A DNA stretch of 53,156 nucleotides from Clostridia bacterium (GCA_017427315.1 JAFRTA010000267.1:1-53156); one strand, 5' to 3'; positions 17,644 through 36,983 are shown, counted from the first letter of the stretch. Notes: a model not told the origin generated them from the letters alone. Program-made: numbers and translations.

Positions 17644-18825
17644 TTATGAAACGGCCGAAGTGGTGAATGTGAAGGTGTGCGTCGTCTCTTCAATGGACGT
17701 CATGGCGAAAGTCGCACTGTCGATACCGAGCGTCAGCGTCGCCGGAATGGTGATCGACTGCTTGGAATAATACGTCGCGGAGAGCGGATATCCGTAGGGG
17801 TTGAATTTGTACTCCACGTAAGCGCCCGTAACGGCGTTCTGGAAGTAGTAGTTTTTTAAGCCCGATACCTGAAACGGATCGGAGGTGCTGAATCTAATTT
17901 CGTCGTGGATCTCGACGGTGATCCCTTCCGTATCCGAGCCGGTCATGGAATTGGCGAGCTCGTTCCCCATTCTTTTGAGCTGCTCGGAATCGTGGATGTC
18001 CGGAAGGAGCTGTTCCAGCAGCGCGAGCTGCTCGGTTTCGGCCGCCTTCGTGACGGTGAAATCGTTGAACGTGATCCGGATCGAATAGGTGTTGTCCGCG
18101 TTGAGGGTGACCTTTGATACGCTCTTGATCAGGGCCGTATTGCCCGCGAGCGCTTCGGGGAAGACGAAATTCGGGTCGCCGCAGGCGGGCAGATAGGAAT
18201 AATACGCGGAGCTGCGCCAGCCGGAGGGCGTATAGTAACTCGCCGAATGCTCTTCTTCGGCGGTCGACCGCTGGCTGATCTCTTTTTTCATGGCTTTCAT
18301 CGCCGAGGCGGAAAGGCTCAAGCCGCTTTTAATGGCGATGTCACCGAAAGAGACGTCCGTTTTTTTATAGTTGAAGTTCCTGGTGGTGCCGGATTCCGGC
18401 GCCGCCTTCAGCTGGTTCGCGTAGTTGAGGATGCTGAGCGCAGCGGCTTTTGAGGGCGCTTTTTCCTTATATTTCGTGTACGGATGGGCGACCTGCGCAT
18501 CGGAAACAGGGTCGAGCCCCGCACCCCGTCTGAGCGTGAGACGCGCGTCTTTTGAAGTAATGCTGCCGTCGCGGTCGTAATCCGCGGCTCCGCCGATGAT
18601 GCTTCCGGCCGCAGGCGGTTCGATCTGGTAGGCTGCGATCCGCAGGATGGTGCACGCGTCGGAGGCCTGGACCTTGCCGTTGCGGTCGATATCCCCCAGC
18701 AGGTACCATTTGCTCACATAGGTGGAGCTTGCTTCCGGATAAGAGCCGGCCGCGTGGACGGGAACGGCGCAGACGAAAAGGATCAGGGCGCAGGCAAGCG
18801 CGCACAGACTTTTTATCTTTTTCAT
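17644..18825 (-). CDS. Secreted protein with an N-terminal dockerin-like pair and a C-terminal domain of unknown function
   Basis: Signal peptide MKKIKSLCALACALILFVCAVPVHA. GDIDRNGKVQASDACTILRIAA and ADYDRDGSITSKDARLTLRR. RBS AAGGAAGG. Confidence 0.75.
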   Translation of the reverse strand: MKKIKSLCALACALILFVCAVPVHAAGSYPEASSTYVSKWYLLGDIDRNGKVQASDACTILRIAAYQIEPPAAGSIIGGAADYDRDGSITSKDARLTLRRGAGLDPVSDAQVAHPYTKYKEKAPSKAAALSILNYANQLKAAPESGTTRNFNYKKTDVSFGDIAIKSGLSLSASAMKAMKKEISQRSTAEEEHSASYYTPSGWRSSAYYSYLPACGDPNFVFPEALAGNTALIKSVSKVTLNADNTYSIRITFNDFTVTKAAETEQLALLEQLLPDIHDSEQLKRMGNELANSMTGSDTEGITVEIHDEIRFSTSDPFQVSGLKNYYFQNAVTGAYVEYKFNPYGYPLSATYYSKQSITIPATLTLGIDSATFAMTSIEETTHTFTFTTSAVS

Positions 18826-21009: not shown

Positions 21010-21085
21010 GGGGGCGTAGCTCAGCTGGGAGAGCGTACGGTTCGCATCCGTAAGGTCGAGAGTTCGATCCTCTTCGTCTCCACCA
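21010..21085 (+). tRNA. tRNA-Ala(CGC): tRNA-Ala, anticodon CGC
   Basis: Manual cloverleaf of 76 nt. Acceptor GGGGGCG/CGTCTCC with G3:U70. D stem GCTC/GAGC. Anticodon stem TACGG/CCGTA with loop TTCGCAT. T arm GAGAG-TTCGATC-CTCTT. A73 and an encoded CCA. Confidence 0.95.
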
Positions 21086-21088
21086 CAA
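21073..21088 (+). repeat. attL core (direct repeat TTCGTCTCCACCACAA)
   Basis: Identical 16-mer at 36593-36608; it covers tRNA nt 64-76 plus 3 nt. Confidence 0.9.
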
Positions 21089-21093
21089 CCATC

Positions 21094-21144: not shown

Positions 21145-21169
21145 TGACGATTACCCGTATTATGAAAGA

Positions 21170-21204
21170 CAGCAGTGAGACGTACCCCACTGCTGATTTT
21201 TATT
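21170..21204 (+). terminator. Second plus-strand hairpin with a T-run at the element's left end
   Basis: CAGCAGTG / CACTGCTG 8-bp stem, then ATTTTTATTTT. Confidence 0.5.
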
Positions 21205-21423
21205 TTACGATGCCATTTTTGTGTCGTGCGGGACGTCAGATTGCTGTTTTTCTTTCCATTCCTTGAACTCCCGCTTTCCTTTTTCCGATTCGCAGTAAGC
21301 GACGATATCAGGCAGAATGCATCGCGCAAATTCTTTGAGCTGCTCTTTTGTTAATGTGCATTCCGCGCGCCGGTTGCTCATAATTCGAGCGAATTCTCTT
21401 TGTAAATATTTCAAAAATACCAT
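21205..21423 (-). CDS. Small hypothetical protein (72 aa) co-transcribed after the relaxase
   Basis: Strong RBS AAAGGAG 7 nt before the ATG, overlapping the relaxase stop. Charged, Cys-containing product; no family named. Confidence 0.65.
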   Translation of the reverse strand: MVFLKYLQREFARIMSNRRAECTLTKEQLKEFARCILPDIVAYCESEKGKREFKEWKEKQQSDVPHDTKMAS

Positions 21424-21435
21424 CCTGATACTCCT

Positions 21436-22893
21436 TTACATTTCTCCCCACATCGGGGAATTATTTGTTGTTTCCGCTTCGTCTTCATCGGAAGAATCTT
21501 CCGCCGCCGCGAGGATCAGTCCTGCGGCAAACCCGATCGCGGCTCCGACAGCGGCGCCGTTCGCGTCGGCTTCCATTCTTTTCCGGCGTTCCTCCTCGTC
21601 CTCGTCGCCGTCCGTCAGAGCGCCAAGCGCAAGTACACCGCCGACGCCAGCACCGACAACAGCGCCGAACCCACCGCCGTCGTTACCATGATCCGGATGA
21701 GCTGCCGCCGCAGGTTCTCCGCTGTTGATCTGATATCGTTTACGGTTTCGCGCAGCAGCTTCGAGCTGTCCGAGATAAACGTCTCTTGACTCCTCCCAGC
21801 CTGTGAGACGCTGTCCTGCAGGTTCGTCACCGTTTCCCGATTTGCCGCTGTCAGATTCCCGGCCGTCCGTTCCATATACCGCGCTTCGATATCCAATATC
21901 TGACTGACGTATTCCTGCAGTTCCTTCCGCGTCGCCAGCGCTTCGATCCGCCGGTACAGCGTCGGCTGAAAGGACGCCGCCTGCTTCAGCAGATTGAATT
22001 CCTCCGTCCTCTGACGCACCGGGATCGCGAAGACCTGCGGCTCGTACTCCTGATACTCGATCGCAGAAAGCGCGTCTTCGTTCTGCTGAACGAGATTTTC
22101 CAGCGCCGAATTGCGCTGCGAGCCGTTCTCTGATTTTGAATTCATTTTCAATATTCTCCTTCAAATATTTTTCGTCGTGCAGCTTATTGTCTCTGCACTT
22201 CATTCCGTTCGGACAGAGGAAAGTGATATTTTTCCGCTCGTCCGTCCACGTCATCATATAACCGAGACGTTCCATATTTTTGATAAACTCTTCCCGGCTG
22301 CCGCTGGTTTTCATCGCGGAATTGATCGCCGCCATGAGCTTGAATTTCCAGCTTTGTCCCTTCTGCGCGGTTCTGTATTCTCTCGACCCGAGATTGGTTG
22401 ACCGTTTCTGCGGATCATATTTCTGTAAAACAGAAAGACCATATTTCAAACACAGCTCGTCACTTTTCTGACGCAACTCCGACAGAAAAAATTTATTCGC
22501 GTGCAGCTTTCTGCCTGTGTCGAGATCGTAACTGTTCACGACAAGATGCGAATGCAGGTGCCCCGCGTCGAGATGCGTCGCCACGACGATCTCGCGGTTA
22601 CCGAACGCTTCCGCCAGTTCCGTTGCGATTTTGTGCGCCAGCTCCGGCGTAATATCTTCGTTCGGGGGGAAGGACTGTACATAATGAAAGAACCTTGCGC
22701 CTTGCTTATGTCCGAACAGATTCTGCGTCGCGAGGAAGGATTCGTTTGCAAATTCCGGCACGCAGTTGACTCCGTTCACGAACATCGTTTGTTCTTCCGA
22801 GGTCGTTTTGTCGGGGCGCATGCAGTAATCGAGCACGCCTTTCTGCGCGCTCGGCGACTGTTTTGACTCCGGAATATTCTTAACGATCGCCAT
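21436..22893 (-). CDS. MobA/VirD2-family relaxase (mobilization nuclease) with a low-complexity C-terminal half
   Basis: Start at MAIVKNIPES (ATG 22893), overlapping the mobC stop. Relaxase motif THLDAGHLHSHLVVN (HxDxxHxH type). The track ORF extends to a TTG at 22983. Confidence 0.85.
   Translation of the reverse strand: MAIVKNIPESKQSPSAQKGVLDYCMRPDKTTSEEQTMFVNGVNCVPEFANESFLATQNLFGHKQGARFFHYVQSFPPNEDITPELAHKIATELAEAFGNREIVVATHLDAGHLHSHLVVNSYDLDTGRKLHANKFFLSELRQKSDELCLKYGLSVLQKYDPQKRSTNLGSREYRTAQKGQSWKFKLMAAINSAMKTSGSREEFIKNMERLGYMMTWTDERKNITFLCPNGMKCRDNKLHDEKYLKENIENEFKIRERLAAQFGAGKSRSAERRRAFCDRVSGVRAAGLRDPGASEDGGIQSAEAGGVLSADAVPADRSAGDAEGTAGIRQSDIGYRSAVYGTDGRESDSGKSGNGDEPAGQRLTGWEESRDVYLGQLEAAARNRKRYQINSGEPAAAAHPDHGNDGGGFGAVVGAGVGGVLALGALTDGDEDEEERRKRMEADANGAAVGAAIGFAAGLILAAAEDSSDEDEAETTNNSPMWGEM
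21615..22145 (-). CDS. Nested alternative-frame ORF inside the relaxase gene (MobB-like accessory candidate: coiled coil plus a C-terminal TM helix)
   Basis: AAGGAG 10 nt upstream of the ATG at 22145. Its third codon positions are strongly G/C-biased, whereas the relaxase frame over the same stretch is not. The product ends in IMVTTAVGSALLSVLASAVYLRLAL. Confidence 0.5.
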   Translation of the reverse strand: MNSKSENGSQRNSALENLVQQNEDALSAIEYQEYEPQVFAIPVRQRTEEFNLLKQAASFQPTLYRRIEALATRKELQEYVSQILDIEARYMERTAGNLTAANRETVTNLQDSVSQAGRSQETFISDSSKLLRETVNDIRSTAENLRRQLIRIMVTTAVGSALLSVLASAVYLRLAL

Positions 22894-23197
22894 TGGGATC
22901 GCCTCCAAGCGCCGAAAGAATCTTTTTGTAGCAGTCGAGCGTTTCGGAAAGATCGACCGTTTTAATCCGTCCCTGATGCGCAAGCCGTGTGAGCTGATTC
23001 AGATTGTTTCCCTGACGGCGTAGTTCCTTGTTCGCGCTGCGCAGATCTTCGTTGACGATGATCTGTCCGTTCAGGCACATATCAAGAATGAATTTGCGCA
23101 GAGTCGGTGCGGCAGTTTCGATTTTTTTTTGATACAATCGCTCTTTTTCTTCTGCAGTGAGACGAATCGAAATCGTTTCCGTCTGTGTTCTCGGCAT
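22880..23197 (-). CDS. mobC: MobC-family relaxosome accessory protein
   Basis: Start MPRTQTETISIRLT after GAGGTG. RLTAEEKERL and GNNLNQLTRLAH motifs. Confidence 0.85.
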   Translation of the reverse strand: MPRTQTETISIRLTAEEKERLYQKKIETAAPTLRKFILDMCLNGQIIVNEDLRSANKELRRQGNNLNQLTRLAHQGRIKTVDLSETLDCYKKILSALGGDPNGDR

Positions 23198-23345
23198 ATA
23201 TAAATCACCTCTATTTTCTGAAAGTGGGTCCGGGCTTCCGCCCGGATCGGAGCAGCATGCTCCGATTTTTGCGCGATGGCGTTCGCTGACGAACGGCGGC
23301 GGACTGCCACGCGCTACGCTTGCCCCGGACAAGTCCGGGAATATA
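23198..23345. promoter_or_regulatory. Candidate oriT / promoter region upstream of mobC (cluster of inverted repeats)
   Basis: TCCGGG-N6-CCCGGA (23229-23246). ATCGGAGCA-GCA-TGCTCCGAT followed by a T-run (23246-23270). CGTTCG-CTGA-CGAACG (23280-23295). CCCGGAC-AA-GTCCGGG (23324-23339). No nick-site consensus recognised. Confidence 0.3.
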
Positions 23346-23776: not shown

Positions 23777-24118
23777 CTATGGAGAAATTACACCGTCGGT
23801 AAGAATATCGCGTTCCGTCTTGAACAAGTCTTTCACATAGTACAGGTTGCTGGTTTGCGTTCCGTCTGTGCGGCGACGGGAAACAGTTTTTATCAGACCG
23901 CGGGAAGACAATGCTTTCAGGGCGGCGTCCACCGTTTTTCTGTCGATGCAGCATTCCGATGCGATCAACCGTCTGGACGGAAACGCGGAACGCTTCTCGT
24001 TGTCGCAATGCCGCAGCAGACAGCAGAGCACCGTAAATTCCCTCGGCTTCAGATGTAGGTCAAAAATTCGATTCGGCAGCATGAAAAAGTTTTTATGATG
24101 CGGTTTGTCGGGCTTCAT
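23777..24118 (-). CDS. Helix-turn-helix (HTH_36-like) protein common on small mobilizable elements
   Basis: Start MKPDKPHH after GGAGGTG. FFMLPNRIFDL...FPSRRLIASECCIDRKTVDAALKALSSRGLI. Confidence 0.75.
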   Translation of the reverse strand: MKPDKPHHKNFFMLPNRIFDLHLKPREFTVLCCLLRHCDNEKRSAFPSRRLIASECCIDRKTVDAALKALSSRGLIKTVSRRRTDGTQTSNLYYVKDLFKTERDILTDGVISP

Positions 24119-24475
24119 TTTTACACCTCCCTTCGGGTTTGATTGTTTGTGATTGTTCCCTCCCGTTCCTGATTTCATAATTTTCTTGATCCCGATAATC
24201 AGACACAAAAAAAGAGCGCAACAAAAACACACCGCAATGGACACGCCATTACGCTATGTGTTTTCGTTACGCTCTTAAGCTTCGATCAATCAAGCTCTGC
24301 GCCCGAAAAAAGAGAAAAAGAAAATATGTTAAATATGATCTGCCGGTTCAGCCGGAAGATATTTGTCAGGCACCAAACGTTTGTTTAGTATGGCTATAAT
24401 AACATAGTTCAGGGCATTTGTCAAGAGATAACAGAACAAATTTTCTAATGTTTGAAACGATGTTTGAAAATCTTG

Positions 24476-24903: not shown

Positions 24904-27900
24904 ATGAACCGAATGAATAAAACACTTGCTATTATTCTTGCGATTATTTTGCTGGGATATTCAATGCATATGACATATACATTTGCCGGCTCAAATAATG
25001 TTGCTTGGAATAGTTCCTATGACCCAGTGACTGGAAACAGCGATACTGTTGATTTGCCTTCAGGTTGCACGAGCTATTACTATAATGAGAGTTTTTATTT
25101 AAACATTCAAGTTGGTGAAAATATTTTTATTCACGATGCTAATTTGTATGTTTATAAGGATGGTTCATTATATCATTCTGCAAATGCAAAAAAAGAGTTG
25201 GGCTTTTCAAATTATGTTCGATTTTGGGGACACCCATTAATGAATGCAGGTGTGGGCTCATATTATTTTTATTTTATATTAACTTATTCTACTGGATCGT
25301 TGTCAAATTCTACAAGTACTTATACCACAGGGAATTATTCTTTTGCCGTAGTCGATAGGACACCATCCATCAACGCTTCATCAACGAATGTATCGCTGAG
25401 TCTGGCTGGCACAAAAACAAAAACCGTTAGTTTTATTAAATCATGTGCTCTTAGTTATTCATACCATTATTCTTATAGCAAAAGCTCTTCCGCTTTTTCT
25501 TGTGAATGGATGGATTGGAATGGTGATTATGCGCCGCTCAAAATCACGGGAATAACAGCTTGCACAAATGAACCGATTACAATTTCTCTGAAAAGAGCTT
25601 CAGATAACGCCGTGATGGCAACAAAAACGATATATGTTACCGTCTCAACCGAGACATATAATATCAGGTATAATGCAAATGGCGGTACGGGAGCTCCATC
25701 TGATCAAACAAAAGTTTACAATGAGACACTGTCTCTATCTTCAGTCATTCCGGTTCGAACAGGGTACACTTTCCTTGGTTGGTCAACAAGCAGCGGTGCT
25801 TCTTCAGCAACGTATCTTCCTGGAGGATCATATACGAGCAACTACGGAACAACTTTGTATGCAGTATGGAAGCAAACAACGCTTTCATCTGGGGCTATTG
25901 TAACTACTCCAATTACATATAGCGGTCAACAGTATATCTATAAATTTACACCTTCAATCTCCGGATCATATGTTATTTATTCAACAGGAAATGCAGATAC
26001 AAAAGTATCTCTTTATAATTCAAGCGGTTCCGTGTTGTCAAATAACGATGATGGGGGCGAAAACAGAAACTTCAGACTGCAATATAACTTATCCTCAGGA
26101 TCAACTTACTATTATGGTGTTCAGTATTACAGTTCTTCTTCAACAGGTTCGATTTCGACGATTTTCGGACCTGTGTATGTAATACAATATAATGCTAATG
26201 GCGGAAGTGAAGCCCCGTCCCAACAGTCAAAAGATTATAATACAAGCCTTCTCCTGTCTTCTTTTTCTCCGGCTAAATTTTTTACAATTACATACAATGC
26301 CAACGGCGGCAATGTCAGTTCTGCAAGTAAGACCGTCAATTGCACGTTCAATAGCTGGAATACACAACAGAACGGCAGCGGAACAAGCTATAACGCTGGA
26401 GCAAACTATACCACCAACGCGAATGTGACACTTTACGCGCAGTGGATAAATCCGACGGCTGGTTCTCTTGCAACACCCACTCGTTCCGGTTATACTTTCG
26501 ACGGTTGGTATACATCGACAAGCGGCGGCAATCATGTGACAGATGCAGCCACTATTTCCGACAATACTACGCTTTACGCACACTGGACAAAAATTCCAGA
26601 AAAATACACTGTAACATATAACGCCAATGGCGGATCCGGTGCGCCTTCCCCGCAGACCAAGACCGAGGACGCTGCGCTGACACTGAGTAACACAAAACCG
26701 ACCAAGTCTTACACAATTACATACAATGCCAACGGCGGCAATGTCGGTTCTGCAAGTAAGACCGTCAATTGCACGTTCAATAGCTGGAATACACAACAGA
26801 ACGGCAGCGGAACCGCATATGATCCCGGTGACGAATGCACGGATGACGCGGATATCACGCTTTACGCACAATGGGAAAATCCGGTAGCCGGAGAACTGGA
26901 AGACCCTACTAAGGACGGGTATGTCTTTGACGGGTGGTATACTGCCGAAGACGGCGGAGAAGAGATAACTGAATCTTTTGAAGTAACAGAAGATATCACG
27001 GTTTATGCGCATTGGGCTAAAGAACTAAGTGAGTTTACTGTGAGCTATGACGCAAACGGAGGAGACGGAGCTCCCGAGGAACAGATTAAGACCGAAGGAA
27101 CGGATCTGACGCTCAGTGGGGACGTTCCCGTAAAGGAATATACGATTTCATATGATCTCACCGGCGGCAGCACGGAAAATGAAGAAAAAACCGTCGGCTG
27201 TACGTTCATCTGCTGGAACAGCGCATCGGACGGCAGTGGGACCGCATATGATCCCGGAGAAGAATATTCTGACGACGCGGAGGTCACGTTATACGCGCAG
27301 TGGAAAAATCCGGTAGCCGGGGTACTGGAAGACCCGATCAGGGATGGGTATGTATTTGATGGGTGGTATACTGCCGAGACCGGCGGAGAAGCTATAACGG
27401 AGGACTTTGAAGTATCCGGAGATATCACGGTATATGCGCACTGGATCGAAGAACCGGGTGAGTTTACCGTGAGCTTTGACGCCAACGGAGGAGACGAAGC
27501 TCCCGAGGATCAAATCAAGACCGAAGGAATGGATTTGACGCTCAGCGAAGATATTCCTGTGAAGGAGTATACTATTTTCTATGATCCCACCGGCGGCAGC
27601 ACGGAAAATGAAGAAAAAACCGTCGGATGCACGTTCCTCGATTGGAACTGTGAACCGGACGGCAGTGGGGCTGCATATGATCCTGGTGACGAATATACGG
27701 ATGACATGGATGTTACGCTTTACGCACAGTGGGGGAATCCGGTAGCCGGAGTATTGGAAGACCCGACCAGGGACGGGTATATTTTCGACGGGTGGTATAC
27801 TGCCGAAGACGGTGGAGAAGAGATAACGAAATCTTTTGAAGTAACAGAAAATATCACGGTTTATGCGAAGTGGGTCGCCGAAGAGGATCCGAGTTCCCTT

Positions 27901-28500
27901 GCCGGAGATATCAACGGCGACGGCGTTGTGAATAATAAAGACCTGACGAGGTTGATGAAGTATTTATCTGGTGAAGACGTATATGTCGTTAAGAAAACGT
28001 TGGATGTCAACGGCGACGGCATCTGCAATAATAAAGACCTGACAAGACTGATGAAGTATCTTGCCGGAGAAGACGTCAAGATCTATTACGACAAGAATGC
28101 CAGGGAATTCGAAAAAATATATTATGTTCCTGTCCGCGTCTCTACGCAGTCCGAAGCAGGAACAAATGAGCAAGCGCTATGGCAGTGGGAAGAATCCAAT
28201 GTCAGCATTTCCCTTAATGATGAAAAATCTCCGGAGAGAGTCCGTTCGATTCTGTTTGATGGCGACGGACGGCTGCTTTCCGCCTCGGGAACTGACACGG
28301 TTTTTGAGATCGAATGCGGCGTCCGATATGAATTTAATTATGACGACGCTGTGCTTAATTCTATCGTGCGCACAAAAGAGCCTTTGCAGCAGATGGATAA
28401 TGCCGCAGATTATATACTACGTCAACACTGCTGTTTAACGAAAACGGATTACTGTCAAAGTATACGACTGAAGAAGACACTTCATTTTCCGATTTTTTGA
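24904..28500 (+). CDS. Secreted 1198-aa protein with a PPC-like domain, multiple Listeria-Bacteroides (Flg_new/InlB-B type) repeats in four ~143-aa super-repeats, a type-I dockerin pair and the start of a YD-like region
   Basis: RBS GAGGAG. Signal peptide MNRMNKTLAIILAIILLGY. Repeats Y.V.YNANGG.GAPS.Q.K......L....P.R.GYTF.GW and TLYAQW. PPC-like SGSYVIYSTGNADTKVSLYNSSG...NDDGGE. GDINGDGVVNNKDLTRLMKYL / LDVNGDGICNNKDLTRLMKYL. Confidence 0.85.
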   Translation: MNRMNKTLAIILAIILLGYSMHMTYTFAGSNNVAWNSSYDPVTGNSDTVDLPSGCTSYYYNESFYLNIQVGENIFIHDANLYVYKDGSLYHSANAKKELGFSNYVRFWGHPLMNAGVGSYYFYFILTYSTGSLSNSTSTYTTGNYSFAVVDRTPSINASSTNVSLSLAGTKTKTVSFIKSCALSYSYHYSYSKSSSAFSCEWMDWNGDYAPLKITGITACTNEPITISLKRASDNAVMATKTIYVTVSTETYNIRYNANGGTGAPSDQTKVYNETLSLSSVIPVRTGYTFLGWSTSSGASSATYLPGGSYTSNYGTTLYAVWKQTTLSSGAIVTTPITYSGQQYIYKFTPSISGSYVIYSTGNADTKVSLYNSSGSVLSNNDDGGENRNFRLQYNLSSGSTYYYGVQYYSSSSTGSISTIFGPVYVIQYNANGGSEAPSQQSKDYNTSLLLSSFSPAKFFTITYNANGGNVSSASKTVNCTFNSWNTQQNGSGTSYNAGANYTTNANVTLYAQWINPTAGSLATPTRSGYTFDGWYTSTSGGNHVTDAATISDNTTLYAHWTKIPEKYTVTYNANGGSGAPSPQTKTEDAALTLSNTKPTKSYTITYNANGGNVGSASKTVNCTFNSWNTQQNGSGTAYDPGDECTDDADITLYAQWENPVAGELEDPTKDGYVFDGWYTAEDGGEEITESFEVTEDITVYAHWAKELSEFTVSYDANGGDGAPEEQIKTEGTDLTLSGDVPVKEYTISYDLTGGSTENEEKTVGCTFICWNSASDGSGTAYDPGEEYSDDAEVTLYAQWKNPVAGVLEDPIRDGYVFDGWYTAETGGEAITEDFEVSGDITVYAHWIEEPGEFTVSFDANGGDEAPEDQIKTEGMDLTLSEDIPVKEYTIFYDPTGGSTENEEKTVGCTFLDWNCEPDGSGAAYDPGDEYTDDMDVTLYAQWGNPVAGVLEDPTRDGYIFDGWYTAEDGGEEITKSFEVTENITVYAKWVAEEDPSSLAGDINGDGVVNNKDLTRLMKYLSGEDVYVVKKTLDVNGDGICNNKDLTRLMKYLAGEDVKIYYDKNAREFEKIYYVPVRVSTQSEAGTNEQALWQWEESNVSISLNDEKSPERVRSILFDGDGRLLSASGTDTVFEIECGVRYEFNYDDAVLNSIVRTKEPLQQMDNAADYILRQHCCLTKTDYCQSIRLKKTLHFPIF
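26284..26384 (+). repeat. Intragenic 101-nt direct repeat, copy 1
   Basis: 100 of 101 nt identical to 26713-26813 (offset 429 nt). Confidence 0.9.
26713..26813 (+). repeat. Intragenic 101-nt direct repeat, copy 2
   Basis: See 26284-26384; the single A/G difference is at GTCAGTT versus GTCGGTT. Confidence 0.9.
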
Positions 28501-28895
28501 TAGAATACGATGAAAGCGGGCGTGTTGTTTCTATTTCCGGCGAGGATTCGGGCGGATCGATTAATATTACGTACTCATACAACAACGACCGATATGACAG
28601 CGCTGAAACAGATTACTATGTTCAAACGGACGTCTCGGAATATCATTATAATGAAGAAGGTAAACTGATTCGAGTTGAACAGGAAGACGGAAATATCGAA
28701 TATGATTATGATGAACACGGAAATGTAACCGGGATCAAAAATGAGGTAATCGGTAATATGGAGCTCCAGATTGAGTACGAGCCTGCGACATATGCACAAT
28801 ATCAGGCGTTCCTTGCGATTATGAACTGCAATCTGGATTTTGTCACACCGAACGAAAAGATAACGTCTTTTTACCGGGGATTTCTGATGAATTAG
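28401..28895 (+). CDS. YD/RHS-like repeat tail displaced into another frame (probable frameshifted C-terminus of the 24904 gene)
   Basis: This frame is open from 28401 and reads ..LFNENGLLSKYTTEEDTSFSDFLIEYDESGRVVSISGED..YHYNEEGKLIRVEQEDGNIEYDYDEHGNVTGI. It has no RBS or ATG of its own, and the upstream frame already carries FDGDGRLLSASG / YEFNYDD. Confidence 0.55.
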   Translation, partial: CRRLYTTSTLLFNENGLLSKYTTEEDTSFSDFLIEYDESGRVVSISGEDSGGSINITYSYNNDRYDSAETDYYVQTDVSEYHYNEEGKLIRVEQEDGNIEYDYDEHGNVTGIKNEVIGNMELQIEYEPATYAQYQAFLAIMNCNLDFVTPNEKITSFYRGFLMN

Positions 28896-28962: not shown

Positions 28963-31900
28963 ATGAATTTAAAAAGGATAACAGCAGTAATACTCACGTT
29001 TGTAATGATGTTTACTTGTATTCCTTTGACTGTCCATAATATGGATGCAAACGCGGCTGCAGTAAAACGATATACTGTTTTGGTGTTAGATACATCGAAT
29101 GAATCTAGCTTCAGCGATTCTGACGGGAATACGTTTTACACTGCACCGACTGCAATTGAATATGTAAAGCTATCTGCAACCAGATTCTTGTCAAATATTA
29201 GTAGGTCAACTGACGACAACTTTGTTGCAATTGTTTCGTTTAAGGATAACGCTCAAATTGTATCGGGTTTTTCGGATGACTATGAAGCATTAAAAGAAAA
29301 CATAGTAGATTTATATGCGTCAAGTGATGTGCGTGATATCTCTGCCGGTTTGGCAGAAGCACAATCGCTCATTAGTGAGATAAACGATGCCGATGCGGAC
29401 AAGAATGTTGTACTTTTTACAACAGGAATGACCAATAATGGCGAGTATAATTATGACGGAGTATTCAATGAGGATACGATCGGAAGTGATTGGTATAAAA
29501 TTAATACGGGTATATATCTATACGCATATGCAAATCACGCCTTTGAAGTTGCAGAAGAAATAAAAGAAGCGGGAACAACTCTGTATACTATCGGTTTATT
29601 TCAAACCATGGAGGATATTCCAGAACTTGGACAAAGTGTTGCAAAGCTCTTTCAATTAACTACTCGCCAATTGGCTTCTTCAGATGATTGTTACTTTCCT
29701 GTTGACGACCCGGACAAGCTTGAATTGACTTTTGGGGAAATTGCCGATGTGATTAATAAGATTTCTACTGTAACCGGAGAGCTTGGCGATTATGTAACAG
29801 TTGTAATCTTTAACTCTGATGAATATTATGATGCTGTGGAAATTAATAATAAAAAATATAAATTAGCTAAGGATTCATCTGTTACCGAGAAATGGGTTAA
29901 ATCAAACAAGGGAAGGTACGTAAAAGCGGTTTTAGCTAATGATGAAGTCTTAAGCATCGTAGCATATCTGACGACCAATATAGACAACAATGCTTTCAGT
30001 CATAATAAGAATAGTTTTTTTAGCAGGTTCTTTAGTGGGGAATTGCAATATGCTCTAACTCCAAACGGTGAAATTGTATTGCAAGAGAGACAATCTGACG
30101 GAACATATAAAACTTTAAGTATAAAAGAAAAAGAAAAACGAGAGAAAGAACTTAAGTATGAAATAAGCGATGATAAATTTAAAGAATTATTAGATTGGTG
30201 TTCCGAATTTTATAATGGAGTTAATAAAAACCAATTTAACCAAAAACTTCTGAAAAAAAAGCGAAATGAGTCTTGGGGCGGGAGTTGCTTTGGGGTAAGC
30301 ACGACCATGGCATTAAGCTTTAAAGGTGCTGTAAACCTTTCTGATATTTTTGGTGCTGGAGAAACATATTTTCAACTAGATACAGTGAATTGGCCTGTTA
30401 ATAACCAAGATTTTAGAGATTTAATTAATTATTATCAGTTGGCTCAATATGTAAATGCCTGGCAACATTACGATTTGACTGACAAAGGTGGTTTAATCCA
30501 ACAGAACCAAGAGACGAAAAACCGGGTTATTTCCGCAATGATAGACTACGCGCTGCAGTGTGATGCAACAGGTGAACCGTTTGTAATCTGTATGTCATAT
30601 TCGCATGATTCCGATCCCAATCAAAACGGAAATACCACAAGAGAGTCTGCAGGTCATGCTATAGTCGGTGTTGGGGTGGTATCTACTAATGAAAACGCGA
30701 CTGTTATCAGAATAGTTGACCCTAATTATAGACAGTATAATAATATGACATTGTCAAAGGATGATGCAACTGACAATTATTCAATTAGTTTTGAGCTCAA
30801 CTATACTGCTGATAGAAATTATGACTTCGATTCAATTAATTTTGTTTCTCTTGAGGAACTTCGTGTCGTTGATTATCACGGAGATTTATACTCTGAGAGA
30901 TATAATATTCCTACAAGCACTTTCATATTCGGTGTTAACGAGGAAATAACGATAATCGATAAAGATACCGGCCATAGATTTGTTTATCGGAAAGGTGAAA
31001 CCTCCGGTAATATGACCGTATATGATTTTTACAGATATTATTCTGATACAGAAGCGTCAGAAGGCGGCGAAATCGGATTTGAGCTTGAGCTCGGAGACAA
31101 TTACGAAATAATAACTGACGGCGAAATAGACCTGACAATAGGAAATGCGGAGGGCTTTGCCGGTATAGATGTGGTCAACGGGAATCATATTGATCTGGAT
31201 CTTGAAAAAGGTTTTGAAATTACCGGCGATAATATACAGTATGATATTTTTGTCGATCTTGATAATAGTGAAAATCTTATCAATGTGTCTGGCTGCGGTC
31301 GCGAAAAGATTTATGTTGAGGAAACGGATTCTTCTGTCGTTGTTACCGGTGATGATCTGTATATAGATTCTTGCGATTATTTATACAACGAAAAGATAAT
31401 TGAGAATGAGATCGATTCCGATGGACGGGAATTTGAATTTGGAATCGTTGAAGATCATGTAGGAGTGCTCAGAAAAATTGCGATTAATCCGGCTGTACTC
31501 ACCGTCTCTTCAACAGGGTCTGAGCCTGGTGAAGAAATTGTTTTGGCAGTTTCGATATCCGATAATCCCGGCATCAATACTTTTTCTTTGGGCTTCGACT
31601 ATGATGAATCTGTTCTTCAACTTACCAATGTTGAGTCGGTATCTGATTTGGGCGGACAATTCACCTATTCAAAAAAAGCCGTCTGGCTGAACAGTTCGGA
31701 CACGGATTATAACGGCGATATACTCAAATTATACTTTAAAGTGTTGCCTGAAGCCGTTTCGGGGGATGCAAAAGTAACGCTGACATATAACGCCGGCGAT
31801 ATTTCCAACTACAATGAGGATGATATCTTCTTTGAAGTTCAACCGGGCGTCGTTTCGATTCAGGAAAAGCAGACGATTCCCGTGACCACGGAAGCTCCCA

Positions 31901-34900
31901 CGACCGAAGCCCCGACTACAGAAGCCCCGACTACAGAAGCCCCGACGTCGGAGCCCGCGTGGACAGAGATCGGTCCTGTCGGTGATGTCAATCAGGACGG
32001 AAAAATCAATTCAATGGATGCGAGACTGACCTTGCGTTTCGCCGCAAAACAGCAGACCGCTTCCGGGATGGAAAAACTCCTCGCAGACGCGAACGGCGAT
32101 AAGCTGGTACAGGCAAAGGATGCTCGTCTGATTCTGAGATACGCCGCCAAACTTGATAAAGCAGGTGAGAACGGTAATATTATTTTGTCCACGATCAGAA
32201 AGGCAGATAACGGTGAAACCGATCCGTCAGCGGGCAGCGAACCGGAAACGACTTCGACTGAGCCGTCACAGGCTCCGACAACAGCGCCTGCAACACAGAT
32301 GACGACAGAACCTGTCCCGGAGAAGCCTGCCGTTTATTCCGAGATAACCCCGGAAGATAAAGCAAGTATTAAAGAACTCGCGTTTGATATGTGGCTCTTT
32401 AATCCCTATTTGACAGAAGAATACGTGAATGATGAATCGGATGCATTTTCGTTTGATAGTACCGCCGATAACGCAATGTCGCAGGCAATGATATTACTGA
32501 ATCCCAATACTTACGCGTTATTTAATCGTTATTATTCTGATTCAGCGGATGAGCTATACGATTTTGCCGATCCTTCTGAACGATTTGATATGTGTGTGAG
32601 AATGTCAGGAGAGAACGTGGATAATCTCTTGCGTGATTTATTCGGAATAGAGCCTGATCATGATATCGATAATGAGATTTGTTATTATAAAGACGGTAAT
32701 TATTATATGTCTGTTTCACTTGAAGGCACAGACAGCTTTGACTTTTTTGAGATAGACGATATTTCAAAAAATCAAGACAATTCTTTTGACATTACATTGC
32801 ATCTCTATTCGGTAGATCCGGGTGCCGGGAATGTTCGAGACGAGCACGTAGAGTTTAATATCCGTGCCGGAATGATAGAATCCTCAGGTCAAAGGAATTT
32901 GCGTATAGAAAAACTGCAGTTCTATAAAACAAAGGAAGAGAAAAGCACTCCCGATGTTTCCGATAATTACCACACAAGATATAAGGGCCGTGAATACCAC
33001 ATTCCCCAAATCGCTCGGCAGGGATCGAATTTTGAACGCATTAACCGCGAAATCTACGAAAAGTATTATACGAACGGCGCAGAATCTGCTCTGAGCAATC
33101 TTGAAATAGGAATTGATCCTTCCGTGGTGTATATCAATTATGAATGGACCGTGTTTGACAGTATTCTGTCTCTTTGTGTCTACAGCCAAACGGATGCGGC
33201 GAGCGCGCGGTTTTATGATGTATACAATGTCGGAGAGATGAGAGGAGACGCCTGCGCGGACTCTTATGTCATGAGCCTGTTCGATTTGTCGGAAGATGAA
33301 TTTTACAAAGCAACAAAGTCTGCAATGGAAAAAAAGTTTTATGATGAGTATGGAGAAAAACCTTTCAGTGACGACTTTGCGGATATCTGGAACGGCGCAT
33401 TAAAAGATACGCTTGCGGATGAAAATGTACAAAAAGTTGTTCCGCATATCAACAGCGATAATGAATTGTGTGCGATTGCATATATTTATTCTATCGGCGG
33501 CGCAGAAGGGTATTATTACGATATCAATATTTCCGAGATTATTTCATCCGATTTGCACGATGATGTGCAGGAAGCTGAAACGCACAAAAAACCGGGCTTC
33601 AATCTGATACGATATGAGGATGCACTGTTGGGTAATCGCGAGTACAAACTTAATGAAATCGGTCTTTTACAAGAAATAGATTTTTACGCAAACGAGGATA
33701 TTGGTTCATATACCATTACCTTTGTATATGACAGTGAAGGACGTTTGCTGGAGGCGAAGAATTCAAAAGACGACTTTCATGAAGGCGTTGTGCATACATG
33801 TAAATACGATATAACAGGTCGGTTGATCCAAGAAGGCATTCCCGGACCGAGCGAATCATGGATTGTCAAATCATACACTTATAATGCAGAAGGACAAAGG
33901 GATAGAGAAATGTGGGAATATTCTTTTGGAGAAATGACAGAGTATAACTTCACAAAGAATTATTACCATATTTATTCCGAAGGCGAGGAAGAAAATATTA
34001 CGGATACGCTTGTCTTAGAAGATGGAGAACAGTCAACAGAGGCGCTTAACGAAACCTTCGACGCCAAAGGGCGCATGTTGCGAGGGTATTATTATGATGG
34101 TATCTTCTGTAGTTTCAATTATCACGAAACGGAACCTCTTTCATTGCGAGATGTCATTGTTGCAGAAGACGGGGTGGAAATACCCCCAGATTCCGAGGTT
34201 TTGTTTTATGATAATGCTGGATTGCTGGTTGCCACACTGCCTGTGGGACAAATTGACCCGCCTATTCAGAAGGATGTTGACGGGACCATTCTCGGTATTG
34301 GAGACAATATCACGATGTACAATATACTTCCATCGATTTCCACAGAAAACTTTATTGAGCCGACAAATAAAGATTTTGAGGAATTGGGTACAGAGTTTTC
34401 TTATGAATCGCTTCTTGCAGATTTAAACCTGACATGGACTGGTTATGCATATTCGCCGTACAGTTATATTATCAATTATGACCATGCTGAAACAACCTCT
34501 GCAACGGTAAGAGAAAGACTGTTCTTCATTACTTACTCTATGCCTTATATTCGATATTTCGGAGAGCCGGAACGTGTGACATATCCAGAAAATGACGATC
34601 CTTTTGATTATTTGCCGGGATCATTTCATGTATATCTGAAGTATTCCGAAGAAAAGATCAGCTGGCTTGCAAAGAATTTTTTGAACACAGAAAGTTTTTC
34701 TCCGAATGACTTTATTGGTGATATTTCATATTGCGCCTATAAAGACGGTTATTTCTATTTTATTGATGAAGGCTATGACATGGAATGTGACTTGATGTCA
34801 AAAATATCAAGTATAGAGAAATTAGACGACGGACGATATTCCATGCAAATCGAATATATGATTAACGATTCTGGTAATCAATCTCCGGCATCAGGAAACG

Positions 34901-34986
34901 GAACTTTGGTTGCCGCCTTGAAACTGATTGACGGGAAAAGGGTGTGGTCTATCTACAGCTATAAAGCTGAGATTATCCCCCTGTAA
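28963..34986 (+). CDS. Giant (2007 aa) secreted multidomain protein with a vWA-like domain, a papain-like Cys/His domain, a cohesin-like module, a TTEAP linker, a dockerin, and a long C-terminal region with YD-like repeats
   Basis: RBS GGAGGG. Signal peptide ending NMDANA. VLVLDTSNES.. vWA-like. WGGSCFGVS (Cys442) and SAGHAIVGVG (His565). Cohesin-like aa ~840-968 (GEEIVLAVSISDNPGINTFSLGFDYDESVLQL...GDILKLYFKV...AKVTLTY). GDVNQDGKINSMDARLTLRFAA / DANGDKLVQAKDARLILRYAA. FVYDSEGRLLEA, YDITGRLIQE, YTYNAEGQRD. Confidence 0.85.
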   Translation: MNLKRITAVILTFVMMFTCIPLTVHNMDANAAAVKRYTVLVLDTSNESSFSDSDGNTFYTAPTAIEYVKLSATRFLSNISRSTDDNFVAIVSFKDNAQIVSGFSDDYEALKENIVDLYASSDVRDISAGLAEAQSLISEINDADADKNVVLFTTGMTNNGEYNYDGVFNEDTIGSDWYKINTGIYLYAYANHAFEVAEEIKEAGTTLYTIGLFQTMEDIPELGQSVAKLFQLTTRQLASSDDCYFPVDDPDKLELTFGEIADVINKISTVTGELGDYVTVVIFNSDEYYDAVEINNKKYKLAKDSSVTEKWVKSNKGRYVKAVLANDEVLSIVAYLTTNIDNNAFSHNKNSFFSRFFSGELQYALTPNGEIVLQERQSDGTYKTLSIKEKEKREKELKYEISDDKFKELLDWCSEFYNGVNKNQFNQKLLKKKRNESWGGSCFGVSTTMALSFKGAVNLSDIFGAGETYFQLDTVNWPVNNQDFRDLINYYQLAQYVNAWQHYDLTDKGGLIQQNQETKNRVISAMIDYALQCDATGEPFVICMSYSHDSDPNQNGNTTRESAGHAIVGVGVVSTNENATVIRIVDPNYRQYNNMTLSKDDATDNYSISFELNYTADRNYDFDSINFVSLEELRVVDYHGDLYSERYNIPTSTFIFGVNEEITIIDKDTGHRFVYRKGETSGNMTVYDFYRYYSDTEASEGGEIGFELELGDNYEIITDGEIDLTIGNAEGFAGIDVVNGNHIDLDLEKGFEITGDNIQYDIFVDLDNSENLINVSGCGREKIYVEETDSSVVVTGDDLYIDSCDYLYNEKIIENEIDSDGREFEFGIVEDHVGVLRKIAINPAVLTVSSTGSEPGEEIVLAVSISDNPGINTFSLGFDYDESVLQLTNVESVSDLGGQFTYSKKAVWLNSSDTDYNGDILKLYFKVLPEAVSGDAKVTLTYNAGDISNYNEDDIFFEVQPGVVSIQEKQTIPVTTEAPTTEAPTTEAPTTEAPTSEPAWTEIGPVGDVNQDGKINSMDARLTLRFAAKQQTASGMEKLLADANGDKLVQAKDARLILRYAAKLDKAGENGNIILSTIRKADNGETDPSAGSEPETTSTEPSQAPTTAPATQMTTEPVPEKPAVYSEITPEDKASIKELAFDMWLFNPYLTEEYVNDESDAFSFDSTADNAMSQAMILLNPNTYALFNRYYSDSADELYDFADPSERFDMCVRMSGENVDNLLRDLFGIEPDHDIDNEICYYKDGNYYMSVSLEGTDSFDFFEIDDISKNQDNSFDITLHLYSVDPGAGNVRDEHVEFNIRAGMIESSGQRNLRIEKLQFYKTKEEKSTPDVSDNYHTRYKGREYHIPQIARQGSNFERINREIYEKYYTNGAESALSNLEIGIDPSVVYINYEWTVFDSILSLCVYSQTDAASARFYDVYNVGEMRGDACADSYVMSLFDLSEDEFYKATKSAMEKKFYDEYGEKPFSDDFADIWNGALKDTLADENVQKVVPHINSDNELCAIAYIYSIGGAEGYYYDINISEIISSDLHDDVQEAETHKKPGFNLIRYEDALLGNREYKLNEIGLLQEIDFYANEDIGSYTITFVYDSEGRLLEAKNSKDDFHEGVVHTCKYDITGRLIQEGIPGPSESWIVKSYTYNAEGQRDREMWEYSFGEMTEYNFTKNYYHIYSEGEEENITDTLVLEDGEQSTEALNETFDAKGRMLRGYYYDGIFCSFNYHETEPLSLRDVIVAEDGVEIPPDSEVLFYDNAGLLVATLPVGQIDPPIQKDVDGTILGIGDNITMYNILPSISTENFIEPTNKDFEELGTEFSYESLLADLNLTWTGYAYSPYSYIINYDHAETTSATVRERLFFITYSMPYIRYFGEPERVTYPENDDPFDYLPGSFHVYLKYSEEKISWLAKNFLNTESFSPNDFIGDISYCAYKDGYFYFIDEGYDMECDLMSKISSIEKLDDGRYSMQIEYMINDSGNQSPASGNGTLVAALKLIDGKRVWSIYSYKAEIIPL
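31885..31959 (+). repeat. 15-nt tandem repeat encoding (TTEAP)n linker
   Basis: ACCACGGAAGCTCCC ACGACCGAAGCCCCG ACTACAGAAGCCCCG ACTACAGAAGCCCCG ACGTCGGAGCCCGCG. Confidence 0.9.
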
Positions 34987-35067
34987 TGCAACTCGGTCTG
35001 AAACAAGGCTCCAATATATCCAAAAGATTATCTCTTTATGGGGTATAATTTATGACAGCTTTTTCTG

Positions 35068-35096
35068 TTGACATTTTTGTGAAAGTATTTTATACT
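35068..35096 (+). promoter_or_regulatory. Near-consensus promoter of the recombinase gene
   Basis: TTGACA, 17 nt, TATACT. RBS GAGGTG before the ATG at 35133. Confidence 0.65.
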
Positions 35097-35132
35097 TACA
35101 TCCAGAAAATTTGTTCTGCTTGAGGTGCAAAA

Positions 35133-36983
35133 ATGAATGCAGTAATCTATGCGCGCTATTCTTCCGACAATCAGCGGGAAGAATCCATCGAAGGGCAGAT
35201 TCGGGAAAACACGGCGTTTGCCGAAAAGAACGGGATGACAATCGTCGGTCACTATATAGACCGCGCGTATTCGGCGAGAACGGACAAACGACCCGAATTC
35301 CAGCGGATGATCCGTGACAGCGCGAAGAAAAATTTTGACGTGGTTATCGTCTGGAAATTAGACCGTTTCGCCCGTAACCGTTATGATTCCGCAAAATACA
35401 AAGCCGCGCTGAAAAAGAACGATGTAAAGGTCGTTTCCGCGACGGAGGCGATCTCCGAAGGCGCCGAAGGAATCATTCTCGAAGCGGTTTTGGAGGGATA
35501 TGCGGAGTATTATTCTGTTGATCTGTCGGAAAAAATATTGCGCGGTATGACGGAAAACGCTCTGAAATGTAAATACAACGGCAGTCACGTCCCGTTGGGC
35601 TTTCGCATAGACGAGGATCGGTTTTATCAGATTGACGAATCGAAAGCGCCTATCGTCAGAGAGATTTATGAGCGTTACGCAAGCGGAGAGACGGGAAAAT
35701 CCATCATTACGGATCTGAACGACCGCGGTCTGAAAACGACGACAGGCAAACCTTTTGTCGCCAACAGTCTGCACAGCATTCTGACAAACCGGATGTATAT
35801 CGGCGAATATCATCACGGCGCTGTAGTTAAGCCGGGCGGGATACCCGCCATTGTGTCCCGGGAGCTGTTTGACCGGGTCGCCGCACGAATGGAAAAGAAC
35901 AAGCGCGGTTCGGGCCATAATAAGGGCTATGAGCGGTATATCCTTTCCACAAAACTGTTTTGCGGAAAGTGCAGGTCCATGATGGTCGGTGAAAGCGCGC
36001 AAAAGAAAAACGGCATGATTTACCGCTATTATAAATGCGCTTCTGCGAAACGTAAAAAAGGCTGCGACATGAGAGCCGTTCGCAAGGACTGGATCGAGGC
36101 TCTGGTGATAAATAAACTGGTTTCAATATTGAACGATCGCGACACGCTGAATAAAATGGCGGACGCAGTATTGGCGCTTTTCGACGAAGAAAACGCCGCT
36201 GTCCCCGCATTGGAAGCGCAGCTGAAAGAAACGCATAAGGCAATCGACAATCTGATGAAAGCCATTGAGTCGGGAATCATTACACGGACGACGAAATCCC
36301 GGTTGGAAGAACTGGAAAAAGAAGAAGAACGGATTCTGCAATGTATAGAAACGGAGAAAGCAAAGCAGCCGATGCTTTCAAAAGAAATGATCCTGTTTAC
36401 GTTGGAAAAATTTCGAAATCTTGACCTGTCTGTCGGAAAAAACCGGGAACGGCTGGTTGACGGTTTTGTCAAATGCATCATACTTGAAGATGACAGAATC
36501 ATCATAACGACAACTTTCCGGGACGAACCTGTCACAATAATAACGAAAGAAGAAATTGAAACGATTGCTGATCACGGTTCGGATGTCAGCGGTTCGTCTC
36601 CACCACAAAAATCGGCATCCTTTCGGATGCCGATTTTTGTATGGTGGAGCAAGAGGATCGAACCGTCGAGCGAAACGCTCCGGTGGAGCGTTTCGGGAGC
36701 GGCCCGGCAGAAGAGGACAGGAAGGGGCATCCTATCGGATGTCGATTTTTGTATGGTGGAGCAAGAGGATCGAACCGTCGAGCGAAACGCTCCGGTGGAG
36801 CGTTTTGGGAGCGGCCCGGCAGAAGAGGTCATACGCCCTCATGCTGCTTGCGGGCGTCCTGTTCTCAACGGACCTGCCGAAGCGTATTTTCAAAAAAAGA
36901 TTCGATTGCTTTGCGTCAAGGCTTGCCGCTGCCGCCGTGCTGATCCTGCTTTCGGTCCTGATGCTCATCGGCGACAGCTATAA
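35133..36983 (+). CDS. Large serine recombinase; the conserved part ends near nt 36590, and the ORF then reads through attR into flanking DNA
   Basis: N-terminal resolvase domain AVIYARYSSDNQ...VIVWKLDRFARN. Recombinase domain and zinc-ribbon (CGKCRSMM...YYKCASAKRKKGC). Coiled coil. No stop codon before the junction. Confidence 0.9.
   Translation: MNAVIYARYSSDNQREESIEGQIRENTAFAEKNGMTIVGHYIDRAYSARTDKRPEFQRMIRDSAKKNFDVVIVWKLDRFARNRYDSAKYKAALKKNDVKVVSATEAISEGAEGIILEAVLEGYAEYYSVDLSEKILRGMTENALKCKYNGSHVPLGFRIDEDRFYQIDESKAPIVREIYERYASGETGKSIITDLNDRGLKTTTGKPFVANSLHSILTNRMYIGEYHHGAVVKPGGIPAIVSRELFDRVAARMEKNKRGSGHNKGYERYILSTKLFCGKCRSMMVGESAQKKNGMIYRYYKCASAKRKKGCDMRAVRKDWIEALVINKLVSILNDRDTLNKMADAVLALFDEENAAVPALEAQLKETHKAIDNLMKAIESGIITRTTKSRLEELEKEEERILQCIETEKAKQPMLSKEMILFTLEKFRNLDLSVGKNRERLVDGFVKCIILEDDRIIITTTFRDEPVTIITKEEIETIADHGSDVSGSSPPQKSASFRMPIFVWWSKRIEPSSETLRWSVSGAARQKRTGRGILSDVDFCMVEQEDRTVERNAPVERFGSGPAEEVIRPHAACGRPVLNGPAEAYFQKKIRLLCVKACRCRRADPAFGPDAHRRQL
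36575..36584. repeat. Element-end inverted repeat CGGTTCGGAT (partner of 21096-21105)
   Basis: Lies 8 nt from the attR core, inside the recombinase ORF. Confidence 0.6.
36593..36608 (+). repeat. attR core (direct repeat TTCGTCTCCACCACAA), the displaced tRNA 3' tail
   Basis: Identical to 21073-21088. Confidence 0.9.
36611..36638. terminator. Probable original tRNA-Ala terminator (bidirectional form)
   Basis: Perfect 10-bp stem ATCGGCATCC-TTTC-GGATGCCGAT, flanked by AAAAA and TTTTT. Confidence 0.75.
36614..36828. repeat. Tandem duplication, 2 x 112 bp, each unit carrying an inverted tRNA-3'-end-like segment and an 11-bp-stem hairpin
   Basis: TGGTGGAGCAAGAGGATCGAACCG occurs at 36642 and 36754. 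Hairpin CGAAACGCTCC-GGT-GGAGCGTTTCG. The second unit is slightly degenerate. Confidence 0.85.

Follow-up and report, generated by a model that had tools for sequence, protein, structure and literature searches.

A 2007-residue protein with a VWA and putative C39-like head, a cohesin and a dockerin, encoded on a proposed integrative mobilizable element of a Clostridia bacterium

We analysed a 53,156-nt stretch of DNA from a Clostridia bacterium (GCA_017427315.1 JAFRTA010000267.1:1-53156; hereafter the window), which encodes a 2007-aa protein carrying both a cohesin and a dockerin. The coordinates of its domains and of the surrounding features are collected in Table 1. A GGAGG box lies 8 nt 5′ of the ATG of the open reading frame (ORF), and the G+C content around the gene is 36-44% (about 40%), against 58-60% in the surrounding backbone. 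The encoded chain starts with a putative signal peptide, recognized by eye from the pattern MNLKR, a hydrophobic stretch and ANA/A, and continues with a VWA domain, a Cys/His/Asp and all-beta module, a cohesin, a Thr/Pro linker, a dockerin and an orphan tail of ~880 aa. A contig from a different sample (L009) matches window positions 25133-46983 with 2 mismatches in 21,851 nt (99.99% identity) and encodes an identical 2007-aa protein. Because L009 is an independent assembly, the chain is not an assembly chimera or artefact. The complete combination of domains is unique in the databases searched, and a scan of genome contigs with the whole protein found no relative.

Table 1. Position, strand and basis of the features of the 2007-aa protein gene, of the element that carries it and of its borders
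Feature	Position (nt)	Strand	Basis
tRNA-Ala	21010-21085		tRNA call
Left direct repeat TTCGTCTCCACCACAA, overlapping tRNA-Ala 3′ end	21073..21093	+	repeat comparison
Relaxase (MobA/VirD2-like) and NikA/MobC mobilisation genes	21436..23332	-	domain matches
HTH_36 gene	23777-24244	-	domain match
Upstream cargo gene: 10 Flg_new repeats, class A dockerin (nt 27907-28076), YD-repeat tail	24904..28895	+	Pfam, L001 comparison
Whole gene, 2007 aa and stop codon	28963..34986	+	ORF call, identical protein in L009
Putative Sec signal peptide, aa 1-31	28963..29055	+	by-eye sequence reading
VWA domain, variant MIDAS (D43, S45, E47; T154 replacing Asp)	29068..29772	+	Pfam, family alignment
Cys/His/Asp domain, aa 398-640, probable C39-like papain-fold hydrolase	30154..30882	+	conservation, Peptidase_C39_2, AlphaFold2 model
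C442 codon	30286-30288	+	sequence
H565 codon	30655-30657	+	sequence
D586 codon	30718-30720	+	sequence
All-beta domain, aa 641-838	30883..31476	+	relatives cover aa ~400-830; all-strand model
Cohesin (cohesin X family), aa 838-971	31474..31875	+	Pfam, homologues, PDB profile
(TTEAP)4 linker	31885..31944	+	sequence
Dockerin, aa 1005-1068, class B (DARxxLRxAA type), class of the backbone dockerins	31975..32166	+	Pfam, repeats
First part of orphan C-terminal region, aa 1130-1553, common to L001 (~93-95% protein, 92.6% DNA)	32350..33621	+	L001 comparison
C-terminal segment absent from L001, with four weak YD-like motifs (nt 33715-34092)	33622..34838	+	L001 comparison
Large serine recombinase ORF	35133..36983	+	Pfam, NCBIfam
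Right direct repeat copy, proposed right end of element	36593..36613	+	repeat comparison

The VWA domain, already proposed in the preliminary description of this DNA, matches VWA_2 (PF13519) at aa 38-155 with 41.1 bits (Pfam threshold 27). In a search with the full protein, 87 homologues aligned only over aa 3-290, with about 50% identity. The metal-ion-dependent adhesion site (MIDAS) had been described as degenerate, and our results agree. D43 and S45 are conserved in the family alignment (88 sequences), but E47 stands in place of the second Ser of the complete site (DxSxS, Thr, Asp), at a position that holds S or T in 66/88 sequences, and T154 occupies the place of the expected Asp. This Thr is invariant (88/88), so the degeneracy is largely a family trait. 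In most VWA relatives Lipase_3 occupies aa ~400-510 and is followed by Flg_new_2 and a surface anchor (SLH, CBM2, dockerin or choline-binding repeats). The subfamily with Thr in place of the MIDAS Asp (P0002-P0088, from Clostridia and Paenibacillus), in which a class 3 lipase usually comes next, is large, one cluster holding 2772 member sequences, and seems to have no specific name.

In the 2007-aa protein, the region following the VWA domain is a Cys/His/Asp domain conserved jointly with an all-beta domain, as one ~400-aa module. An exhaustive HMMER search yielded 178 clusters related to aa 290-840 at E<=1e-3, 32 of them at E<=1e-10, most of the 178 aligning across aa ~400-830. Among 80 relatives, C442 is conserved in 79, H565 in 79 and D586 in 76, giving the order Cys, His, Asp. 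W438, G440, S441, G444, P478, the INYYQLxQ motif (488-495), G564 and N588 are further conserved positions, as are G682 and G755 in the all-beta domain. WGGSCFGVS (Cys442) and SAGHAIVGVG (His565), the two motifs that had been likened to those of papain-fold enzymes, are found at exactly these residues. The consensus of the 80 relatives has Peptidase_C39_2 as its sole Pfam match, with 27.7 bits (threshold 24, E 4.7e-6) over profile positions 15-134 of 143. Individually, 2/21 relatives match this profile at E<=0.1, and the window sequence itself scores 16.9-17.4 bits over aa 438-587 (profile positions 15-142 of 143).

The AlphaFold2 model of aa 398-838 has a mean predicted local distance difference test score (pLDDT) of 82.5 and a predicted template-modelling (TM) score of 0.84. 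In this model Cys442 is the first residue of a helix and is preceded by a helical lobe, His565 lies within a strand, the strand after that has Asp586 at its end, and a ~190-aa all-beta domain follows. Such a placement of Cys, His and Asp on helix and strands is expected of a papain-like fold. The highest-probability Foldseek matches were staphopains (probability 0.38-0.41, TM ~0.3), a Foldseek search of BFVD gave no match at E<=1e-3, and the cysteine proteases seen in PDB searches were at noise level (1cv8, 3ois and 1y4h, E 0.2-0.4). Conservation, family consensus and model together suggest, with good confidence on our part, that the domain is a divergent C39-like hydrolase of clan CA. The earlier papain-fold proposal probably holds, though only at superfamily level (C39-like) and only through the family consensus; structure searches did not confirm it. 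Several other assignments were discarded. Membership of family C1 is not supported, as an hhalign comparison with papain aligned the His motif only, with a probability of 1.3%. An alpha/beta-hydrolase with GSCFG as a GxCxG nucleophile elbow does not fit, since the order is Cys-His-Asp and the Cys comes after helices with no strand. A thioester domain was rejected in view of the conserved His and Asp, and Transglut_core gave no match for the domain.

The module recurs in other surface proteins. P0091 (846 aa) consists of VWA and module and is 62% identical over aa 290-833, while P0092, named "VWA domain-containing protein [Oscillospiraceae bacterium]" by NCBI, adds a dockerin to the same pair. 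Other relatives carry a C-type lectin, LRR_5 or Flg_new before the module, and SLH, DUF4214 or Big_2 after it. An alignment-based scan of reference genomes found the module in only three metagenome-assembled genomes of Clostridia/Oscillospiraceae, two of them named as coming from goat caecum and from rabbit. The first ~835 aa are hence a recurrent, unnamed surface-protein architecture, seen in P0091-P0093. The combination of domains had been presented as an undescribed one; this applies to the full 2007-aa set but not to its first ~835 aa.

Downstream of the module lies a cohesin of a family that we refer to as cohesin X. Analysed alone, aa 840-968 match PF00963 with 31.2 bits (threshold 24.1), the score within the whole protein being 21.5 bits. 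Of aa 836-975 we found 62 homologues (46-63% identity), nearly all about 180 aa long, 61 of which match PF00963. The cohesin X profile matched 19 chains in the PDB, all of them cohesins (best E 3.6e-7). At aa 1007-1060, beyond the linker, Dockerin_1 (PF00404) scores 35.4 bits (threshold 22.9), and the two DxNxD..D calcium-binding repeats of the dockerin are DVNQDGKINSMD and DANGDKLVQAKD; its best PDB match is a Ruminococcus bromii amylase. The cohesin-like beta-sandwich, the (TTEAP)4 linker and the type-I dockerin pair that had been read from the sequence were in this way all confirmed, and the presence of cohesin and dockerin on one chain is what is expected of an adaptor scaffoldin.

Two sequence classes of dockerin, A and B, occur in the window. 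Class A is found on the protein of the upstream cargo gene, as two copies of the motif DINGDGVVNNKDLTRLMKYL; the class consensus is DINGDGxVNNKDLTRLMKYL, with NNKDLTRLMKY near-invariant. Class B (DARxxLRxAA) is shared by the 2007-aa protein and the backbone proteins encoded at 1432..2865 and 17644..18825. The class A dockerin spans aa ~993-1065 of the upstream cargo protein, and the class B dockerins of the two backbone proteins span aa 404-477 and aa 36-110, respectively. The preliminary description had placed dockerins on this neighbouring cargo protein and on these two backbone genes, and Pfam supports all of them. We examined the neighbourhoods of four small cohesins of the cohesin X family, and each lies beside a recombinase, a tyrosine integrase or a small resolvase. 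The same four neighbourhoods encode multi-cohesin proteins of this family and large LRR_5, Flg_new, CHAP or lysozyme proteins, whose dockerins are of class A and almost identical in sequence. The reverse test, using the class A motif as a DNA pattern, retrieved 2 metagenome contigs, and both (2/2) encode the cohesin X family adjacent to the dockerin. Cohesin X thus lies beside class A dockerins in 7/7 locus types, a count that includes the window and L001 (a locus with a related element, described below) and in which five types were reached from the cohesin and two from the dockerin DNA pattern. A scan of viral contigs gave no match to the class A dockerin. Two mini-proteins, P0247 and P0250, carry a cohesin X together with a class B-like dockerin. 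The simplest reading of these sequences is that cohesin X would bind class A dockerins and that the class B dockerin of the 2007-aa protein would bind a host cohesin; they point towards different partners for its cohesin and its dockerin.

The recombinase-adjacent cassettes (L005-L008, L011-L016, L017, L018) contain ~180-aa cohesins, scaffoldins with 2-3 cohesins and class A dockerin proteins, the latter with LRR_5, Flg_new, CHAP or phage-type lysozyme domains. The last part of the small cohesins is an amphipathic helix (FIQKI...LF). These cassettes have the appearance of a portable display system that may present adhesins and wall hydrolases.

The gene belongs to a region bearing the marks of a mobile element. 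A recombinase, a relaxase and MobC are present without conjugation machinery of their own, as in integrative mobilizable elements, and we read the region as such an element, of ~15.5 kb, at tRNA-Ala. The direct repeats at the tRNA-Ala 3′ end and at 36593 share a 16-nt exact match, and the right copy coincides with the end of similarity to L001: the contiguous identity block stops at nt 36622, the recombinase resembles the L001 copy over aa 1-495 (97%), ending at nt ~36618, and past nt ~36620 the L001 flank differs and carries other genes. The low-GC island, the relaxase, MobC/NikA, the serine recombinase, the tRNA-Ala repeats and the L001 copy in different flanks all bear out the earlier suggestion of horizontal delivery. 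The region resembles integrative mobilizable elements with a large serine recombinase (CcrB/XisF-like) in having the recombinase at one end, a relaxase with MobC, and low-GC cargo. It differs from serine-recombinase elements in that its borders carry a tRNA 3′-end repeat, a feature seen more typically with tyrosine integrases. We found no empty integration site, and the sister contig breaks at the left border of the element. A 112-bp tandem repeat (1.9 copies, 97%) is located at 36605-36828 (+), in the 3′ end of the recombinase ORF and just past the proposed end of the element. Each copy contains minus-strand sequence like a tRNA T-arm and acceptor 3′ end, and these repeats may be remnants of earlier integrations at that site.

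L001 shares the mobilisation genes and the upstream Flg_new/dockerin gene with the window. Window DNA is also found in L001 at 31502-33621 (92.6%) and 34838-36622 (94.9%), whereas 33621-34838, YD motifs included, is absent from it. The large L001 protein has the same cohesin-dockerin-tail chassis but, instead of the VWA and Cys/His domains, a C-type lectin/DUF6273 head. At the DNA level the breakpoint, at nt 31502, corresponds to the first cohesin residues. Judged by its sequence, the 2007-aa protein is a mosaic of a recurrent VWA and C39-like head, a cohesin-dockerin unit and an orphan tail. The upstream cargo gene is intact in L001, where it encodes 1128 aa including the YD-repeat tail. In the window it is split into ORFs of 1198 aa and 132 aa by the loss of one T near nt 28413-28417 (TATATTACT vs TATATACT, relative to L001), and L009 shows the same 1-nt split. 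The tail of the upstream protein contains one RHS repeat (39.5 bits). Past the right end of the element, L001 positions 13900-21578 encode Dynamin_N and FtsK/TraG-like proteins, and this copy may sit in or beside a conjugative element.

The C-terminal tail has only two matches in the databases: P0089, from a related element, with 95% identity over aa 1018-1542, and P0090, with 29% identity across aa 1345-1522. The preliminary description had ended the protein with ~900 aa of YD-type motifs, which overstates the case. We find four YD-like motifs (aa 1589, 1615, 1640 and 1699) within ~125 aa, the last of them reaching aa 1704, the RHS_repeat score of the tail is 19.4 bits (Pfam threshold 22), and no NCBIfam match to an RHS core was obtained for the protein. 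The AlphaFold2 model of the C-terminal 878 aa, made with just these two relatives, was unusable (pLDDT 29). An internal duplication of the tail (aa 1130-1320 vs 1800-2007) was dropped as weak (z 3.6, equalled by one shuffle), as was a guess of an RsiV/DUF3298-like domain at aa 1300-1545, which has no Pfam support.

Our preferred interpretation, held with moderate confidence, is that the 2007-aa protein is a secreted, surface-displayed adaptor, brought to tRNA-Ala by the ~15.5-kb element and forming part of a two-protein surface complex. The adaptor role is suggested by its having a cohesin of a separate family found beside class A dockerins, and a class B dockerin matching those of backbone proteins. 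In the proposed sequence of events, the protein would first be exported by Sec. Its class B dockerin would then bind a host-encoded cohesin, holding the protein at the cell surface, and its own cohesin would capture class A dockerin proteins, the first candidate being the Flg_new-repeat protein encoded directly upstream. The element would in this way install a two-protein surface complex in any host that has a cohesin able to bind class B. The probable role of the VWA head is to bind a target, and the C39-like cysteine hydrolase could act on that target or process the protein itself. Members of the wider VWA subfamily have a class 3 lipase in the same slot.

Several observations weigh against this interpretation. 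The cohesin-dockerin pairing is drawn solely from gene neighbourhood, and neither a host cohesin nor a second cohesin is found within the 53-kb window. In the upstream gene proposed to encode the partner, a frameshift follows the dockerin. The Cys/His sequence found in the window scores below the Peptidase_C39_2 threshold, the Foldseek search of the aa 398-838 model in the PDB gave no match at E<=1e-3, and sequence and profile searches of the PDB with the Cys/His domain gave nothing significant. The C-terminal 880 aa are orphan and have no assigned role. The earlier proposal of a self-contained cohesin-dockerin module able to plug into the host is independently supported by the co-occurrence of cohesin X with class A and by the class B dockerins shared with the backbone, the link between partners coming from gene neighbourhood.

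An unlikely alternative is a self-assembling protein, in which the cohesin would bind the protein's own dockerin and form head-to-tail polymers, on the surface or free, instead of connecting two partners. Amy4 offers a precedent, as it binds its own dockerin (PMC4611034), and the pairing of cohesin X with a class B-like dockerin in P0247 and P0250 is compatible with either reading. All cohesin X loci, however, have adjacent class A dockerins while class B motifs were not found there, and it is class A that the upstream cargo gene carries. The Cys/His domain could also work in cis, cleaving its own chain as an autoprocessing or maturation protease, for example to free the VWA head or the tail, instead of attacking an external substrate. 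Peptidases of the C39 type are processing enzymes, and the domain lies between the head and the anchoring modules in all relatives, which would suit this role. We nevertheless give it a rather small chance, as no cleavage motif was identified and the sister architecture has in the same slot a lipase, which is unable to process a protein.

Two further explanations were considered. The protein might be a decaying mosaic without coherent function, its modules having been fused by accident on a mobile element, with a degenerate metal site and a junk tail. The frameshift in the neighbouring gene, the orphan tail partly missing in L001 and the incomplete MIDAS are what would be expected of decay. 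Yet two samples carry the same uninterrupted 6-kb ORF, it is preceded by a good ribosome-binding site, and the catalytic residues and family motifs are all kept. The MIDAS variant itself is invariant across 88 family members and is hence a family trait and not decay. We regard this explanation as improbable. A polymorphic toxin of the RHS/YD type, with the YD repeats as a shell around a C-terminal toxin, is close to refuted. The four YD-like motifs, the RHS_repeat score of the tail and the RHS repeat in the tail of the neighbour would be in its favour. But that score is below the Pfam threshold, with no match to an RHS core, the motifs cover ~125 aa only against the several hundred residues of a shell, and the YD segment is dispensable in L001. 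Moreover, no immunity-like small ORF lies downstream, where the next gene is the recombinase.

The adaptor that we favour has parallels among known systems. One is Amy4 of the R. bromii amylosome, which combines a catalytic module, a cohesin and a dockerin (PMC4611034) and so provides a precedent for an enzyme with both; the supposition of a wholly undescribed architecture is not supported. In both proteins a single secreted chain joins a catalytic or functional head to one cohesin and one dockerin, and both come from the gut Oscillospiraceae/Ruminococcaceae group. The head of the 2007-aa protein is VWA plus C39-like instead of GH13, its dockerin is internal with 880 aa after it, its gene is on a mobile element, and its cohesin is of a distinct family that is linked to class A dockerins. 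ScaC of Ruminococcus flavefaciens, whose structure (5lxv) is among the PDB matches of the cohesin X profile, also carries one cohesin and one dockerin, of presumed different specificities. ScaC is a small non-enzymatic adaptor from a chromosomal cellulosome locus, whereas the adaptor unit described here lies inside a 2007-aa multi-domain protein. In R. flavefaciens FD-1, transglutaminase-like, peptidase and LRR proteins are displayed via dockerins, some of them internal (PMC2930009). The likeness lies in papain-fold/peptidase modules and repeat adhesins on dockerins and in the internal dockerin, and the difference in the Cys/His family, which is not in Pfam under its own name.

The Cys/His module shares with Peptidase_C39_2 (PF13529, clan CA) the order Cys, His, Asp, but has motifs of its own (WGGSC.G, INYYQLxQ, DPN) and an obligate all-beta partner domain. 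The VWA-Lipase_3-Flg_new_2 proteins of Clostridia and Paenibacillus, annotated as 'VWA domain-containing' or 'S-layer homology domain-containing' protein, resemble the protein in their N-terminal VWA (about 50% identity), which shows this MIDAS variant too, and in having a hydrolase slot at aa ~400-600 and then a surface anchor. In the 2007-aa protein the Cys/His module replaces the lipase, and cohesin, dockerin and tail are added. The protein would function in the manner of the R. bromii and R. flavefaciens systems, its differences from them lying in the head, the mobile location and the cohesin family. Of real interest are the C39-like module family, which has no name, and the recombinase-linked cassettes of cohesin and class A dockerin. 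With its 178 clusters, no name, a confident model and no clear structural neighbour, the module is a defined target for enzymology.

Cohesin-dockerin assemblies have mostly been studied as chromosomal machines for the digestion of fibre and starch. Our results suggest that this plug-and-socket chemistry also travels on mobile elements, where it would display adhesins and wall- or protein-cleaving enzymes, and a single transfer would give gut bacteria new surface properties. A limited literature search found no description of mobile cohesin-dockerin cassettes. We propose tentatively, as a possibility somewhat short of even, that gut Clostridia exchange a portable and orthogonal surface-display system (cohesin X and the NNKDLTRLMKY dockerin, in recombinase-linked cassettes) whose payloads are swapped at the cohesin boundary, the 2007-aa protein acting as adaptor to the resident network of the host. 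The payloads would be adhesin repeats and lectins, wall hydrolases of the CHAP and lysozyme kinds and, in the present protein, VWA with a previously unnamed C39-like hydrolase. The near-invariant dockerin and its cohesin family would also constitute an orthogonal pair for protein engineering.

The remainder of the window contains features outside the proposed element. A backbone GH13 alpha-amylase gene, 3022-4884 (+), is near the genes of the two class B dockerin proteins, 1432-2865 (-) and 17644-18825 (-), one of which is a Big_3/SH3 protein; this proximity hints that the host may have an amylosome-like surface system. A second low-GC island (43-47%), at 5060-10834 (-), encodes a protein of 1924 aa that combines a C-type lectin with BspA-type LRR_5 repeats and in which neither the Cys/His module nor a cohesin was found. 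The version of this LRR_5 protein in the sister sample (L010) has 1694 aa, so that its length varies between samples. Next to this island, at 11463-12764 (-), lies a gene combining Schlafen AlbA_2, HATPase_c_4 and winged-helix domains.

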